From a virus: a stretch of 64,000 bases of DNA. This document shows positions 4,188 to 61,201 of this stretch, piece by piece. The DNA is taken from IMG/VR virus record IMGVR_UViG_3300024346_000011. One strand, 5' to 3'. The notes beneath the pieces are model-generated. The model saw only the letters and a list, made by a program, of their open reading frames with translations. It was not told where the DNA came from and searched no databases. Numbering within the stretch: position 1 is the first letter of the stretch; every line of letters starts with the position of its first letter. The position numbers were made by a program, and so were the translations under genes.

Positions 4188-6070
4188 TATCCTTTTAATT
4201 TATTCATGAATTGTTCGAATGTCATTAAACCTTCTGGTTGTACTTTAGAAGCATTAACCACTGACATTGACTTTTCTAATTCTGATTTTAATGTTGGATA
4301 CATTTTATGTAATGCTTTAGGTGTCATTAATTTGAAAGACTTTTCGTCCCCATCTAACATTGCATTACGTACTTTAGTTGCTGAAATAGCTTCATCATCT
4401 CTTGGGATTTCATATAGAGCAAAATCAGATCTAACATTTAATTGATCCCTGTATGAATCGTTATTAACTTGGTATCCATAAGCCTGCATTCTATCAGTTC
4501 CTGTTCCCCATAGAACTGGCTCGTATTTTGGTCTTAGTGCATTAAACATCTGGTCAATTGCAGCACTTGGAAGAACAATGATCTCCTTTAAGAATTTATA
4601 CTGCTTCTGAACCTCTTTAAACATTTTGACCTGTAAATCTTCTGAGTATGGTCTTGAAAATTCATCACCTTTCTTTTGTGTCTTAGACTTAATTAAGAAT
4701 ACAATTACATCATGCCCATTTTGCTTGTGAATTGTCTCTAACACTTTAGCGTGGCCCAATGTAAACGGTTGGAAACGGCCAACAAAAATATTTACAGGCT
4801 CTTTGCCTTGCTCTGTGTGATTAACCTTTAGTGCCTCATTTAAATCCATACTCGATACAATTTTATTATGTAACATAAAATTATTGAAATCATAAATTGA
4901 GAGATTATCATTCATCTCCATTAGGACGACTCCATTAATTTTTTCAATTGTGCTATTTAAGTTTTCAATCATATCATCTGTTAAAATATCAGATGCTTTA
5001 GTACGCTTTTTTCTGAATGAACCTACTGTAATTTTAAATAGTTCAGAAAGAATTTCATTTGAAACGTACTTTAATGTTTTTTCATTCTTGATAAAATTAG
5101 TATTTAATCTAAATGAAGGTGCATGTGCAAAATCAGCACTTTCAAAATTAACACCAATATATTTAGAAGAATTCTTTTGAATATAATCGTTAAATACAAC
5201 TGACATTAACTCAATGTATCTTTCATCAGCCGATGATTCCATTAGTTGAATCTCAGAAAAATCGTATGTTGAAATATATTCTAATAAATCTGCAATTGTG
5301 ATTTGATAAATATGAGAACTCTCTCTATTTTCAATAACCAGCTGTCTTGCAAAATCTTCTAACTTGAATGAATGAATCTTCTTACCTTCTGCAAAGTTTA
5401 AAATAAGTCCATCAATCTCTTTTTCAAGATTCTCTTGTAACATTGATTTAGTTGCATTTGGATTAAAGATTCTATAAATCTCTTTAGTAAAAGAAACCAT
5501 TTTATCCGTTTCTTCTAAATAGTCATAATTGCTAGAGAATTCTTTTGAATTCATTTGCAATAATTTAACCAATTTATCTTTTTGTTGTGAATCCATAATA
5601 CCATCAAAAACCGGCTCTTGAGATTGAACATCAAGAATTTTAGCCCATTTTTTAATGATTACTGGATCAATGATAGTTTTCTTTGAATTACCGTTTTCAG
5701 TGATTTGTTGAATATGTGTAAGAATTAAATTATTATATGGTAATTCAGTATATTCGTAATTTGAAACTTTTAATTCTGGTAAATAATCAAAACCAAATTT
5801 AAAATCAATAGGCAATTTAGCTTTAGCTTCTGTTGATAAACTCTGCATGTGTTTAATAGCAACCTCATAAAGAGACATCATAGTACGATCTACCATTGTA
5901 AGCTTTTCTCCATTTGAAGATTTATAGAATTCGAACTTATCATTAATTCGACGAACATAAAAAGATGGTGCTGAAATTTTTTCAACAACCATTACTCTAT
6001 TATCAAGCATTCCTACGAATGTATTGATGTTGGTCTCTTCAAAATGTTGTTTTAATTTTTTAAGTGCCAT
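4187..6070 (-). CDS. N-terminal degenerate ligase-like domain fused to a HIGH-family nucleotidyltransferase (NMNAT/cytidylyltransferase-like)
   Basis: GRFQPFTLGH, GTDR and ISATKVR motifs in the C-terminal third; N-terminal VVEKISAPSF resembles a decayed EKxDG motif. Confidence 0.75.
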   Translation of the reverse strand: MALKKLKQHFEETNINTFVGMLDNRVMVVEKISAPSFYVRRINDKFEFYKSSNGEKLTMVDRTMMSLYEVAIKHMQSLSTEAKAKLPIDFKFGFDYLPELKVSNYEYTELPYNNLILTHIQQITENGNSKKTIIDPVIIKKWAKILDVQSQEPVFDGIMDSQQKDKLVKLLQMNSKEFSSNYDYLEETDKMVSFTKEIYRIFNPNATKSMLQENLEKEIDGLILNFAEGKKIHSFKLEDFARQLVIENRESSHIYQITIADLLEYISTYDFSEIQLMESSADERYIELMSVVFNDYIQKNSSKYIGVNFESADFAHAPSFRLNTNFIKNEKTLKYVSNEILSELFKITVGSFRKKRTKASDILTDDMIENLNSTIEKINGVVLMEMNDNLSIYDFNNFMLHNKIVSSMDLNEALKVNHTEQGKEPVNIFVGRFQPFTLGHAKVLETIHKQNGHDVIVFLIKSKTQKKGDEFSRPYSEDLQVKMFKEVQKQYKFLKEIIVLPSAAIDQMFNALRPKYEPVLWGTGTDRMQAYGYQVNNDSYRDQLNVRSDFALYEIPRDDEAISATKVRNAMLDGDEKSFKLMTPKALHKMYPTLKSELEKSMSVVNASKVQPEGLMTFEQFMNKLKG

Positions 6071-14628: not shown

Positions 14629-14712
14629 AACTTTAAAACTTTAATTTTCTTTAATAATTGTTTAACTTCTTTGATTGTCTTTCGGTACCTTTAAAACTTT
14701 CAAATACGAATA

Positions 14713-14738
14713 TTATACGTGTCCCCTCTAAAAGGTTT
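14713..14738 (-). promoter_or_regulatory. class B promoter AAAC-N17-TATAA (upstream of SSB)
   Basis: Same motif and exact 17-nt spacer at five intergenic sites. Confidence 0.65.
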
Positions 14739-14757
14739 CACAGTTCTCCAAAAAATA

Positions 14758-14937
14758 TTAGTGTGAATGGTATCTTGAACCAGATTCGTCAATCCAGCCT
14801 TGACCTTCAGGTAATCTAGCTAAACCTGCTCGACGTAAGATGTCTAACATTTCAGCCTCTTCCATACGGCCCTGAGAAACCATGTGCTCTAGAGCAGCTT
14901 TCAAATCTAATAATATTGCAGAACTTATAATATTCAT
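14758..14937 (-). CDS. hypothetical protein
   Basis: Likely start ATG 14937 (MNIISS), just downstream of GATATATA at 14942-14949. Confidence 0.5.
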   Translation of the reverse strand: MNIISSAILLDLKAALEHMVSQGRMEEAEMLDILRRAGLARLPEGQGWIDESGSRYHSH

Positions 14938-15006
14938 ATAGTATATATCTAATTTTTTTGTATTGTTTCGAAACTTTTTACCCAAACATTAATATAAGTT
15001 ATGGTT

Positions 15007-39893: not shown

Positions 39894-41189
39894 TTATATT
39901 TCTTGATATAGAATCTTTTCTACACCGTCAAATGTTGCTGTTTTTTTATCGTATTTACCTTCTCTAAAGATTCCGCCTTTCATTTTGCCTTTCATAACGC
40001 CATCAATTCCAAAAACATAACAGTCATTTACGTGGCATGTTTGATGAATATATGAACTTTTAACTTTAGAGCTATTAATCTGTGAAAATTGAAAGAAGTT
40101 ACAATGCTCGATATCTGAGCCATTAACATCACATCTAAAAATATCACAGTGCCTAAACTCTCCTCTTAAACTTGAGTTTACAAAATCATAATGTCTTAAA
40201 TCAACACAATATTCAAGTTTACCATCATTCAATTGAACCTTACCGGTATCCGTATCATAGTTGATATGTCCTTTAGTTAATTGTCCATGCGTAAACAATC
40301 TCATTACTTGATCCTTAATGTTTGACCAATATAGATCTAAAATTCTTCCATCTTTTTTTAAATCAACTGTAAATTGGATATCTTTCCAACCCTTTTCAAT
40401 ATTTCGCCAATCTTTTGTAGCATCAATAATTCTCTGATTCTCTGCTAAGATTCTCTTCAATTCTAACGCATTTAATTGTGTAAAATTTTGATCTTCTGTT
40501 GATTTCCAAAGTTGTATTAAAAAGCTATCTAATAAGTGTAGAATTGTTGATGTTTTCTTTTCATAATCTTTACCACCAAGATATCTAAACTCTAAATAGT
40601 TTTTATGTCTCTTCTCAAAGTTAATGCCATAATATTTAGTGTCTGGGAAGATAAAGTTTTGTGAATTAATATGTTTACCGTCAAAGAAATAGGTGTCCTT
40701 AGTTGGTAAGATAAATTTAATAGATTTAGCGTATGCAGATCCTTCGCGCTTTGGAAAGAACTTAAACACTTGATCTTCTTTAAAATCAAGAATAAATTTA
40801 AGAACATTCATCTTAGCGATTCTAGTCTTTACGTCAATCTTATTTTTATCAAAAGATAGGTTTAAGTGGATACCAGCCCTATCAGTTGTCCAACCATTCT
40901 TTTCAATCCACTGTAATACGTTGATGATTAATAATCTACCCTCATAATATGGCAAAGCGCCGGTAACCAATTCCATAAGACCTTGGCCACCGCTCATATC
41001 TGGTTCGATCTTGAATTCCTTTGCAGTCACTTCAAAATCTGAGTGCGCTTTTGTTTCAACTCTAATCTTCTTATTTAAAACCTGCTCTAACGCCTTTGCA
41101 GTTTTTTCAGGTCCTAAGTCAGAGAAGAATTCAAACTCCACACCCACCAGGGCATTTTTCAATATTTCTGAATCATTAAATGTATTCAT
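39894..41189 (-). CDS. putative amidoligase (COOH-NH2 ligase family) with C-terminal beta-helix-like repeats
   Basis: GVEFEF, IEPDMS, ELVT, AGIHLNLS, KYYGINF, LEFRYLGG. Confidence 0.8.
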   Translation of the reverse strand: MNTFNDSEILKNALVGVEFEFFSDLGPEKTAKALEQVLNKKIRVETKAHSDFEVTAKEFKIEPDMSGGQGLMELVTGALPYYEGRLLIINVLQWIEKNGWTTDRAGIHLNLSFDKNKIDVKTRIAKMNVLKFILDFKEDQVFKFFPKREGSAYAKSIKFILPTKDTYFFDGKHINSQNFIFPDTKYYGINFEKRHKNYLEFRYLGGKDYEKKTSTILHLLDSFLIQLWKSTEDQNFTQLNALELKRILAENQRIIDATKDWRNIEKGWKDIQFTVDLKKDGRILDLYWSNIKDQVMRLFTHGQLTKGHINYDTDTGKVQLNDGKLEYCVDLRHYDFVNSSLRGEFRHCDIFRCDVNGSDIEHCNFFQFSQINSSKVKSSYIHQTCHVNDCYVFGIDGVMKGKMKGGIFREGKYDKKTATFDGVEKILYQEI

Positions 41190-41249
41190 TCGCGAATTAA
41201 TTAAACTTAAGTTAGTTTATATATTCAACATAGATTATCATATTAACCT

Positions 41250-41302
41250 GAAAAAAAGTTTCACAAATATTTTTTTATGTCGCGGAAAAGTGTTATATTT
41301 AC
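41250..41302 (+). promoter_or_regulatory. class A promoter on the plus strand
   Basis: AAAAAAAGTTT...ATTTTTTTATGTC-N11-TTATATTTAC; matches minus-strand copies at 56548, 56947 and 60805. Confidence 0.7.
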
Positions 41303-41305
41303 TTT

Positions 41306-41448
41306 GTTAGTTGGAGGTAAGTAATTCGGTAAGGAGCAAGTCCGAAGTTAAGAGGTCCCTGAAGCAGTCGCAACCCACTACTCAACAACTAGCCATCTGC
41401 TCGAGAGGATGGTGGAATAAGAGGACTATGCATGGTCCTCTTTTTTTT
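41306..41448 (+). ncRNA. putative structured small RNA (about 140 nt), family unknown
   Basis: Own promoter and terminator, no ORF, locally GC-richer; 41306-13 pairs with 41386-93; hairpins 41325-46 and 41393-412. Confidence 0.6.
41419..41448 (+). terminator. intrinsic terminator of the plus-strand RNA
   Basis: aagaggacta-tgca-tggtcctctt followed by a T-run. Confidence 0.8.
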
Positions 41449-41452
41449 GCAT

Positions 41453-41478
41453 AAAAAAAGGGGCCGTTTGGCCCCTTT
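41453..41478 (-). terminator. intrinsic terminator of the S1 gene
   Basis: aaaggggcc-gttt-ggccccttt with a plus-strand A-run (T-tract on minus). Confidence 0.85.
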
Positions 41479-41496
41479 CATTTCTTTCTAGAGAAA

Positions 41497-42732
41497 TTAA
41501 AGTTTCAAGAAGATCTTGCGAGTAGCAGAATCAATTCTTATAACTTGTACTGTAATATTATCACCAACCTTTAGGGTTTTAATATCAATTGTTTCTGGTA
41601 ATTCAGATATGTGAAGAAGACCAGCTAGACCTTTTTCAACGTCAACAAATACACCATAGTCTTTTACTGACTTGATTAATCCAACAACTTCAGATGGAAC
41701 TTGAATACGCTCTTCAATGCCGTCCCATGGATCAATCTTAACTGGCGCGTCCAATTGGGTAAGAATGATCTTTTCATTTGTAACAATCTCTTTAATCTTG
41801 AAAGTTACATCATCACCTGGTTGAACTTCACGAGCCTTATGTCTCTTAGCAAGTTCTGGGCTAAGATCATTTACGTGGATCATACCTGTTAAACATCCAT
41901 TAAATTCAACGAATACTCCGTATTTAGCCGAACCAGTAACTTGACCTGTAATTTCTACTCCCAAGTTTTCTTTAAGAGCTTCAACCTGTGATGGGATCAT
42001 TGCTTTCAAGTATTCTCTATGGGATACAACAATTGTTCCACGCTGTTGTGAGAAGCTCATTGGCACAACATAAAGTGTTTGACCAACGATTGATTCAAAA
42101 TCAGCCAACTTATTGATACCTGCAAGTGAACCTGGCATGAAACATGCAACACCATTAATTACAACAATGTAACCTCCACCTGGAATCATTTCACTTACAA
42201 AACCTTCGTAAGCTGTGGTTCCTTTTTCAATTGCTTGCATTAATTCATCGATAATCGCTGTTTTAATACCAACAGAAACTGAACCTGTAACGTGAGATCT
42301 ATTAGAAGTCTCGCGGGTATCTGTAACCTGAACCTTTACTTTTTCTCCAGGTACTAACATCTTACGAATCCCTGCGTCTTCTTTAAGCATATTTACATAT
42401 ACCATCTCGCGGTAATTGATGTCGATTGATGCCCACTCTTGATTAACGCTATACACGGTTCCATCATAAATTTCACCTTTATTGATGTGCATAACTGAGT
42501 TAGCAACAGCATCAAAGCCTAGCATGAGGTTAAGAAGATCCTGAGCGTATGGCTCATGTGAATAGACCTTAATACCTTTAGGTGCTTTAATCTTAGTGTT
42601 AGGTTTGCGGAGTGTTTTTGGACAGGTAGCAATGTGTGCTTCCCAATCGAATTCGTCCATAGGGACATTTGCGTTTTCGAGCCTGTTTGAAGTTTTAAGC
42701 TCTTCTTGTACTAGAATTGTGTCTTCTGACAT
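41497..42732 (-). CDS. rpsA: ribosomal protein bS1-like (about 4 S1 domains)
   Basis: N-terminal EFDW as in Bacteroidota S1; repeated S1 motifs (YGVFVEF.G..GMIHVNDL; YGVFVDV..GLAGLLHISEL); IVVSHREYL. Confidence 0.85.
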   Translation of the reverse strand: MSEDTILVQEELKTSNRLENANVPMDEFDWEAHIATCPKTLRKPNTKIKAPKGIKVYSHEPYAQDLLNLMLGFDAVANSVMHINKGEIYDGTVYSVNQEWASIDINYREMVYVNMLKEDAGIRKMLVPGEKVKVQVTDTRETSNRSHVTGSVSVGIKTAIIDELMQAIEKGTTAYEGFVSEMIPGGGYIVVINGVACFMPGSLAGINKLADFESIVGQTLYVVPMSFSQQRGTIVVSHREYLKAMIPSQVEALKENLGVEITGQVTGSAKYGVFVEFNGCLTGMIHVNDLSPELAKRHKAREVQPGDDVTFKIKEIVTNEKIILTQLDAPVKIDPWDGIEERIQVPSEVVGLIKSVKDYGVFVDVEKGLAGLLHISELPETIDIKTLKVGDNITVQVIRIDSATRKIFLKL

Positions 42733-56946: not shown

Positions 56947-56998
56947 ATAAATATAAACAAAAAACCCGACATAAAAAAATGTCGGGCAAACTTTTTTC
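56947..56998 (-). promoter_or_regulatory. class A promoter overlapping a hairpin terminator
   Basis: AAAAAAGTTTG...ATTTTTTTATGTC-N11-TTATATTTAT; inverted repeat cccgacat/atgtcggg. Confidence 0.7.
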
Positions 56999-59109: not shown

Positions 59110-59307
59110 TTATTCGGCAGACTGATTATCACCGAATTTTTGCTGAATATACTTAGCTTTTTGATTCTTAATCCTTTTGGTTACGGATGGCTTTGTATAC
59201 TCCTTTTGGTCGCGAAGTGTTTTAGTTTGTTTAGTTTTATTTACTTTATATTTTAAGACCTTTAAGGCCTTTTCGATATTTCCATTATCAACATTAATAA
59301 TCAACAT
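59110..59307 (-). CDS. rpsU: ribosomal protein bS21
   Basis: MLIINV..NIEKALK..K.K..K...LR..KEYTKPSVTKR...KAKYIQ, Bacteroidota-type. Confidence 0.9.
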   Translation of the reverse strand: MLIINVDNGNIEKALKVLKYKVNKTKQTKTLRDQKEYTKPSVTKRIKNQKAKYIQQKFGDNQSAE

Positions 59308-59534
59308 ATTTTATCAATGATTTTTTTAATATTAAAGCACTTTTCATATTCTTCAGTGCCTTCAAAATATTGTAGAACGTTAGTAAGAGCATCTAACTTT
59401 TCATTAGCTGGTGTGTTGCTGCTTAAAGCATCTTGTTCATTATTAACAATCGCTTTATAGATCATATTCATCATAGTATCTTTCGATCCTTGGATGATGT
59501 GTTCAATACCGTTGTCTTCAAATTCGCTAAGCAT
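59301..59534 (-). CDS. small protein with C-terminal UVR-like motif
   Basis: YFEGTEEYEKCFNI. Confidence 0.6.
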   Translation of the reverse strand: MLSEFEDNGIEHIIQGSKDTMMNMIYKAIVNNEQDALSSNTPANEKLDALTNVLQYFEGTEEYEKCFNIKKIIDKIC

Positions 59535-60312
59535 ATAATTCTTTAATTTTTTCTACTAATTTTAGTTGCTCTTCGTTTAGATTTGGTGGTAGAGTTCTGA
59601 GTTTAATCAATAAACTGCCATATTCATTTGTATTATATATTGGCATTCCTTTGCCAGAAATTCTAAGTACCTTTCCTTCGTATGAATTTTTAGGTATATT
59701 GACTGTAATATCATACAAACTATTCTTTATATTTATCTTTGTTCCAAGTAATAAATCAACAAAAGATAAGGTACATTCAGTCCAGATATCGTGTCCCTGT
59801 ATAATAATATCGGGATCGATAATATATTGTATGGTTATGATTGCATTTCCTCGAGGGGCGGATCGATTGATTGGATGATAATCTCCTTTACCGTTTACTT
59901 TAAGTTTAGCGCCATTTAAAACTCCAGCTGGAATTTTAATATTAAAGCTATCACCGCCTAAATCAATATATTTAGAACAACCATTATAAACTTCTGACAT
60001 CGTTAATGGAACTGAAATCCTAACATCTAATCCTCGGGCCTCTTGACCAAACGATTGATTAAACATTCCAGACCAATCTCCACCAAACTTAACAAAGAAA
60101 TCTCTAAAGCTGGAATCTCCACTTTGCTTAAAATCGTATTCTTGTCTCTTATTGGTATCGCCTAAAATATCATACGCCTCAGAGATTTGTTTGAATCTAT
60201 CTTCAGACCCACCTTTATCAGGGTGATGAATCTTCACCAAATCCCGATAAGCTTTTTTTATCTCATCGTGAGAAGCATTAGAATTTACCCCTAAGACTTC
60301 GTAATAATTCAT
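59527..60312 (-). CDS. DnaJ/CbpA-like class B J-domain co-chaperone
   Basis: YYEVLGV, HPDKGG, G/F region, DnaJ C-terminal domains, no Zn finger. Confidence 0.92.
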   Translation of the reverse strand: MNYYEVLGVNSNASHDEIKKAYRDLVKIHHPDKGGSEDRFKQISEAYDILGDTNKRQEYDFKQSGDSSFRDFFVKFGGDWSGMFNQSFGQEARGLDVRISVPLTMSEVYNGCSKYIDLGGDSFNIKIPAGVLNGAKLKVNGKGDYHPINRSAPRGNAIITIQYIIDPDIIIQGHDIWTECTLSFVDLLLGTKINIKNSLYDITVNIPKNSYEGKVLRISGKGMPIYNTNEYGSLLIKLRTLPPNLNEEQLKLVEKIKELYA

Positions 60313-60804: not shown

Positions 60805-60856
60805 GTAAATATAACAAAAATCCGCGATATAAAAAAATGTTTTAGCTAATTTTTAC
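60805..60856 (-). promoter_or_regulatory. class A promoter
   Basis: ATTTTTTTATATC-GCGGATTTTTG-TTATATTTAC. Confidence 0.7.
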
Positions 60857-61201
60857 AGATTTTTTTCTAGAAATGTTCTCATCTAACATCGGTAAATTAA
60901 TCGCGAGCTCTCCATTTTCGCATTTTGCAGTTACCTTGTCATAATCGATTTCAAGAGTCTCTAGATTAAATCTTTTGTTTACAACCTTCTTTGAATCTTC
61001 TGTTCCCTTAGATCCTTGAACATGTAGTACATCTTCTTCAATATCGATTCCAATATCATCTTTAGAGAATCCCGGTACATTAACAGTTAATACGTAACCG
61101 TTTTCATTCTTGTCAATATTCCAAGAATTTGAAGTTCCATAAGATGGAATGTTGTTGTTGAAAATAAAATCGCTAAACATAAGTTGATTTAAAATACTCA
61201 T
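60842..61201 (-). CDS. small heat-shock protein Hsp20
   Basis: VPGFSKDDI.I, L.V.G, AKCENGEL.I.LP, C-terminal VKI. Confidence 0.9.
   Translation of the reverse strand: MSILNQLMFSDFIFNNNIPSYGTSNSWNIDKNENGYVLTVNVPGFSKDDIGIDIEEDVLHVQGSKGTEDSKKVVNKRFNLETLEIDYDKVTAKCENGELAINLPMLDENISRKKSVKIS

Follow-up and report, generated by a model that had tools for sequence, protein, structure and literature searches.

Among genes that all read in one direction, a compact unit lies reversed in the 64,000-nucleotide stretch of viral DNA that we analyzed as a whole (hereafter, the window). We interpret it, with a little better than even confidence, as a lineage-specific 202-bp cassette of promoter, cargo, and terminator that occupies, in inverted orientation, a hyperplastic spot between an S1-domain protein gene and an amidoligase-like gene, and that probably yields a non-coding RNA. 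A preliminary description of this DNA had proposed a self-contained plus-strand unit, unique in the window, that runs from its own promoter (41251–41302) to its own terminator (41419–41450) and holds no gene, and our analysis agrees with that outline.

The window has a G+C content of 33%, and all 69 of its length-selected open reading frames (ORFs) lie on the minus strand. The cassette sits in a 307-nt gap (41190–41496) flanked on the left by an Amidoligase_2-like gene (39894–41189, minus strand, 431 aa; Pfam PF12224, E = 2.5e-7) and on the right by the gene for a phage S1-domain protein (41497–42732, minus strand, 411 aa; Pfam S1, E = 9e-26). Both genes are surrounded by baseplate genes, and the matches to baseplate wedge and hub PHROGs that adjoin the locus suggest that the phage is a myovirus. 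The source genome is absent from GenBank phages; relatives of its S1 protein (80 in IMG/VR and 80 in metagenomes, all at identities of 70% or less) lie on contigs of up to 236 kb from uncultured phages of marine and fresh waters. Any Shine–Dalgarno (SD)-like 4-mer was found upstream of 2 of 68 genes in the window, and such SD-less gene starts fit a Bacteroidota-type host, while the bacterial relatives of the S1 protein, at most 31% identical over long matches, do not indicate the host. The window also carries a bS21 gene (59110–59307, minus strand; Pfam E = 8e-13), neighbored by genes for DnaJ (59527–60312) and Hsp20 (60842–61201); an SD-like word was looked for upstream of the bS21 gene and none was found.

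The S1 and amidoligase-like genes are adjacent and in the same order in 130 related loci, separated by a gap that comes in discrete size classes ranging from 78 to 2005 nt. The left edge of this gap is the conserved late-type promoter of the amidoligase-like gene, GAATATATAAAC (41215–41226, minus strand), which occurs as an identical block in the related loci L086, L087, L088, L098, and L006. In L086 and L087 (68% S1 identity) and L088 (64%), the gap is only 118–130 nt long and consists of the S1 terminator followed by this promoter. Elsewhere it holds three tRNA genes and an ORF (L058), three small ORFs (L001), a 267-aa gene (L016), or an unrelated G+C-rich stretch ahead of a tRNA (L111), and elements of the promoter class that we call class A stand on its S1 side in L087, L058, and L001. 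Homology of the window with L088 and L087 reaches an A7G run at 41251–41258 and resumes at the S1 terminator, so that the 202 bp between are extra. This extra DNA is exactly the promoter, the cargo, and the terminator, in opposite orientation to every neighbor, and it was found only in this phage, being absent from the relatives compared. An 8-bp direct repeat, AAAAAAAG, could be read at both ends, with its left copy at 41251–41258 and its right copy at 41453–41460, where, read on the minus strand, it also supplies the T-run of the S1 terminator; AAAAAAAG runs also come up as inverted-repeat arms in repeat analysis. As judged from these alignments, the unit is a lineage-specific 202-bp insert bounded by direct repeats. 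A 10-bp inverted repeat, TTTTTTTATG/CATAAAAAAA, was considered as an inversion breakpoint and rejected, given that the promoter element runs on intact upstream.

RNA genes or candidates also lie in the gaps of relatives. In L058, a 68% relative, the tRNA genes are those for tRNA-Arg(TCT), tRNA-Met(CAT), and tRNA-Tyr(GTA) (4874–5121). In L111, whose S1 is the closest (70%), ~105 nt without an ORF (1224–1329) are G+C-rich, closed by GAGAGG/CCTCTC, and flanked by a small ORF and a truncated tRNA-Tyr; this stretch has no Rfam match and no significant similarity to the cargo in the window, and it may be a co-transcribed small RNA.

The cassette's promoter belongs to class A, a promoter class that we infer from the recurrence of its motif. 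The class A layout spans ~55 nt and comprises AAAAAAAGT, a variable arm, TTTTTTTATGTC with an arm, a T-rich spacer, and TATATTTAC. At 41251–41302 on the plus strand, the element is complete: an A7GT upstream tract is followed by TTTTTTTATGTCGCGG and then TATATTTAC, the whole reading AAAAAAAGT...TTTTTTTATGTCGCGG...TATATTTAC and aligning over ~55 nt with the other four copies in the window (9195, 56572, 56971, and 60829). Every one of those four is on the minus strand, 3–24 nt upstream of a start codon, which leaves the cassette with the sole plus-strand copy. A related element stands upstream of a 73-aa ORF just after S1 in the relatives L001–L005 and L064. Three class A copies have a hairpin fused to TATATT (9245–9206, 56987–56964, and 56590–56563); the cassette's copy retains the full sequence frame, but its 5′ arm is non-complementary and no hairpin forms, unlike at 56971 and 56572. 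The minus strand of the 64-kb window has 10 occurrences of the late-type word GATATATA, and the plus strand has none. At the 9195 copy (9206–9191, minus strand), TATATT lies just 6 nt 5′ of the ATG of a tagged gene, and if TATATT is the −10 element, that copy would imply a leaderless or near-leaderless message.

At its other end, the unit closes with an intrinsic terminator (41419–41450, plus strand), a 10-bp stem, AAGAGGACTA/TGGTCCTCTT, followed by T8. The hairpin proper (41419–41442) has a stem energy of −13 kcal/mol, comparable to those of the window's other terminators, and the terminator is the only strong plus-strand hairpin with a long T-run in the 64 kb. The S1 gene's own terminator (41453–41478, minus strand) adjoins it back-to-back and reads GGGGCC-AAAC-GGCCCC followed by T7 (hairpin at 41457–41478, −17.7 kcal/mol). 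The match to four class A copies near start codons, together with the related copy ahead of a small ORF in relatives, argues for a real non-coding transcription unit, which on such sequence features we regard as fairly probable. The one-sidedness of the ORFs, of the other class A copies, and of GATATATA, the singularity of this plus-strand terminator, and the G+C content of the cargo likewise exceed what chance would give. RNA polymerase would start ~7 nt after TATATT, near 41306, and transcription would stop in the T8 run, giving a non-coding RNA of ~140 nt early in infection.

The cargo (41306–41418, plus strand, 113 nt) differs in composition from the genome around it. Its G+C content of 48.7% places it in the top 0.5% of same-size windows, compared to 33% for the genome and 18–36% for the remaining intergenic gaps. 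The 5′ half is purine-rich (G18/C4 in the first 50 nt); C prevails over the following 50 nt (G8/C19). The preliminary description called this stretch ORF-less, which strictly it is not: a 47-codon frame with a TTG start is open at 41311–41454, traversing the terminator to a stop codon past the T-run. The frame nevertheless shows no coding potential. Its codon-usage log-likelihood of −12.0 is lower than in any of the 382 true coding windows of equal length (mean +16.4, s.d. 5.9) and falls within the distribution of stop-free non-coding frames, its 47-aa product had no match among 1.84 billion representative proteins, and none of the cargo's frames was similar to the small proteins encoded in the gaps of relatives. 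Because the codon score is low, the stop lies beyond the T-run, and no protein matches, we treat the cargo as non-coding. The window has another G+C-rich spot, an apparent gap at 14629–15006, with a 59-aa ATG ORF (14758–14937, minus strand); because GATATATAC precedes this ORF, the spot is a small late gene that escaped the 60-aa cut-off, and not an RNA.

The cargo appears to be an orphan. No homologue was found in 163 S1-linked loci searched with nhmmer, blastn, tblastx, and a covariance model (self-match, 152 bits), nor in ten large contigs of relatives (three searched with BLAST only, five with the covariance model only, and two with both), and the conservation beside S1 in related phages to which the preliminary description had looked thus did not appear. 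The covariance-model search for a paralogue within the window returned only the cargo itself. There was no sequence match to the cargo in GenBank phages and no match to exact 20-mers (four searched in IMG/VR and one in GTDB representatives); 401 Bacteroidota genomes gave only scattered single matches at chance level (E of 0.005–0.1 per genome), none of them array-like. In Rfam, none of 4227 models matched the whole window at the gathering threshold, and a permissive local scan gave only terminator-driven matches far under threshold, with no tRNA or tmRNA at E up to 10. ARAGORN found no tRNA or tmRNA gene over the 64-kb window either, and the earlier statement that the RNA is not a tRNA holds. 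Non-conservation weakens the case for a function but does not kill it, because the nearest relatives share only 64–70% S1 identity.

Predicted folding did not set the RNA apart. The pairings from which it had been called structured are all present: GTTAGTTG (41306–41313) with CAACTAGC (41386–41393), extended by GAG/CTC; TTCGG (41325–41329) with CCGAA (41342–41346) around an AAGGAG loop; and CCATC (41393–41397) with GATGG (41408–41412). In the predicted ensemble of an RNA that begins at 41306, these helices have pair probabilities of ~0.85, 0.5, and 0.98. The folding energy is no better than that of shuffled sequences (z = +0.13 for the whole unit and +1.16 for the cargo), and the 8-bp long-range helix arises in 38% of shuffles (p = 0.38). 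The five GGA motifs (starting at 41313, 41333, 41407, 41414, and 41423) are also there as described, including a GGAGGT at 41313–41318, against 2.8 expected, and at least five occur in 11% of shuffles (p = 0.11). Since the fold z-scores, the outer helix, and the GGA count are all at chance level, the label "structured" is unsupported, and the motif count does not amount to a signal. Among the GGA motifs, only the AAGGAG copy sits in a predicted loop, and GGAGG is mostly paired in the ensemble. A search for pairing targets in the 70 translation start regions of the window found none that was significant (p about 0.13). A CsrB/RsmZ-type sponge was rejected on the GGA count and the single copy in a loop, and a conserved structured RNA on the z-scores and the lack of a homologue by nhmmer, BLAST, or covariance model.

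One further likeness concerns the sequence with which the S1 gene ends. The most distant S1 clade (44–50% identity) has a conserved hairpin, AAGGUGGUUGGAGC-UUAA-GCUCCAACUAACCUU, whose loop contains the S1 stop codon; it was found at the 3′ end of the gene in L121 (about 1310–1345), L074, L124, L126, L127, L063, L137, and L129–L134, with compensatory changes (GGAGC/GCUCC, GGUGC/GCAUC, and GGGGC/GUCCC) and with the GGATATATA promoter of the next gene directly after it. The first 11 nt of the putative RNA, GTTAGTTGGAG (41306–41316), are the antisense of an arm of this hairpin, in the same orientation relative to S1. GTTAGTTGGAG is found nowhere else in the 1.03 Mb of window and loci, in which 0.5 occurrences would be expected (post-hoc p about 0.03). 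Because the p value is post hoc and closer relatives lack the match, the identity is probably due to chance.

Whether the RNA, given that it is transcribed, has a selected function or is a neutral by-product of cassette shuffling is a question on which we come down evenly. The intact promoter and terminator speak for function, as does the G+C content, which in an A+T-rich genome would be difficult to maintain unless the cargo is under selection or arrived recently; against it are the cargo's orphan status, the lack of a structural signal, and the lack of a significant partner among the 70 start regions. Should the RNA be functional, our guess is that it works in trans through its purine-rich 5′ half, in which the GGAGGU and AAGGAG motifs are partly exposed and which would pair with a partner or titrate it. 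The cassette itself could have arrived by recombination at the A/T runs of terminator and promoter elements, as in the promoter-early stem-loop (PeSL) cassettes considered below. Several observations count against the cassette as we interpret it: no homologue and no significant target were found, the folding energy, the helices, and the GGA count do not exceed chance, its promoter copy is without the hairpin present in three other copies, and PeSL cassettes normally carry ORFs.

A possible but distinctly less probable explanation is that the cassette is empty or decayed, with its promoter and terminator as remnants of a unit whose small ORF recombination has taken out or scrambled, and with a cargo that is junk, perhaps transcribed but inert. 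It would suit a gap that is a recombination hotspot with cargo differing by lineage, a cargo for which no homologue, structural signal, or target was found, and a promoter copy that has lost its hairpin arm. Decay is harder to reconcile with a cargo of 49% G+C in a 33% genome whose other intergenic gaps are A+T-rich, with the integrity of both promoter and terminator, and with the finding that no frame resembles the small proteins of relatives.

We consider it improbable that the sequence serves instead as a transcription insulator or other DNA-level element, either through convergent terminators and an opposing promoter that shield the amidoligase-like gene from S1 read-through, or through a short G-rich transcript that primes replication via an R-loop. 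The two terminators do stand back-to-back, the transcript's first 50 nt are indeed G-rich, and R-loop priming of replication by a transcript is known at T4 origins. In relatives, however, one terminator suffices; cumulative GC skew has no inflection near 41 kb, and downstream of the promoter lies G+C-rich DNA instead of the easily unwound A+T-rich kind.

That the transcript is a decoy RNA, whether a mimic of a CRISPR repeat (Racr), an antitoxin mimic, or an SD mimic that binds the host anti-SD, seems to us quite unlikely. Its outer helix ends in GTTG...CAAC, which recalls some Bacteroidota repeats, and like a Racr it would be a small non-coding phage RNA with its own expression signals. Racrs, however, are solitary, one repeat in length, and closely matched to host repeats (Camara-Wilpert et al. 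2023, PMC10651486), whereas the GTTG...CAAC span here is 84 nt and had no repeat-like match: the 401 Bacteroidota genomes, a sample of Bacteroidota at large, yielded nothing significant or array-like, and the one exact 20-mer was unmatched in GTDB representatives. The proposed CRISPR-repeat mimic thus loses its footing, as does the antitoxin mimic, no tandem repeats having been found in the cassette. A type III (ToxI-like) antitoxin was rejected in the same way: tandem repeats of ~34–36 nt are missing, and the neighbors are the S1 and amidoligase-like genes, not an endoribonuclease toxin.

For an SD mimic or a ribosome- or S1-related regulator, the observations behind the earlier proposal are real. 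GGAGGT (41313–41318) and AAGGAG (41331–41336) lie 20 nt apart in the cargo; on the plus strand of the 64 kb GGAGGT occurs twice and AAGGAG six times, few gene starts of the window have an SD-like word, and both an S1 gene and a bS21 gene are present. Two SD-like hexamers in an SD-less genome are only suggestive, and with GGAGG mostly paired in the predicted ensemble the regulatory idea is not supported. We attach very little probability to a specific form of it, in which an early decoy RNA would pair through GGAGGU and AAGGAG with the anti-SD tail that Bacteroidota 16S rRNA normally keeps sequestered, and would act jointly with phage S1 and bS21 to retune host ribosomes to SD-less phage messages (for context, see PMC9976891 and PMC9723584).

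Least credible is a small protein gene at 41311–41454, since the TTG frame, although open and beginning 8 nt past TATATTTAC with a spacing like that of other class A copies, starts with TTG and stops after the terminator T-run, scores under every real coding window, matches no known protein, and is of a kind, stop-free over 47 codons, that is not rare at the cargo's G+C content.

As it stands, the cassette that we favor is an orphan known from one genome, with no support from structure or evolution, and its main value is that of a clean, small test case. If the RNA is transcribed and functional, a large phage whose host is SD-less and probably belongs to the Bacteroidota would have a small RNA gene that stands on its own, in a host group whose phage RNAs are essentially unstudied, and promoter/terminator cassettes would then shuttle non-coding cargo as well as orphan ORFs.

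Phage RNAs of similar length are known from T4, whose small stable RNAs C and D (species 1 and 2), ~120–140 nt long and of unknown function, are encoded beside tRNA genes and processed from a tRNA precursor. The likeness extends to position, in that tRNA genes occupy the same gap in the relative L058. Unlike RNAs C and D, the unit described here has its own promoter and terminator, and it has no sequence match among GenBank phages.

A closer resemblance, by analogy, is to the PeSL cassettes of T4-type phages. Hyperplastic regions of those genomes contain orphan cargo with terminator/promoter composites at its flanks, and these composites mediate indels (Arbiol et al. 2010, PMC2839356; Comeau et al. 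2014, PMC4122927). In both systems a composite of terminator stem-loop and promoter is repeated in intergenic spots (five copies in the window), the elements lie at the edges of indels between related genomes in a hyperplastic region (here, a gap of 78–2005 nt), and the cargo is an orphan without database relatives. The differences are also clear. PeSL cassettes normally carry small orphan ORFs, whereas the cargo here is non-coding, its sole open frame failing the codon test and having no relatives; the cassette is inverted relative to all of its neighbors; the copy at 41251–41302 is without a stem-loop; and the promoter consensus, TATATTTAC, is nearer to the Bacteroidota −7 box than to the sigma-70 type. 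A PeSL cassette in the full sense also calls for a T4-type myovirus and for demonstrated promoter, terminator, and recombination activity; here the baseplate matches suggest a myovirus, and these activities are predicted from sequence. With these likenesses and differences, the cassette adds to the evidence for PeSL-like modular shuffling in this group of marine and freshwater phages.
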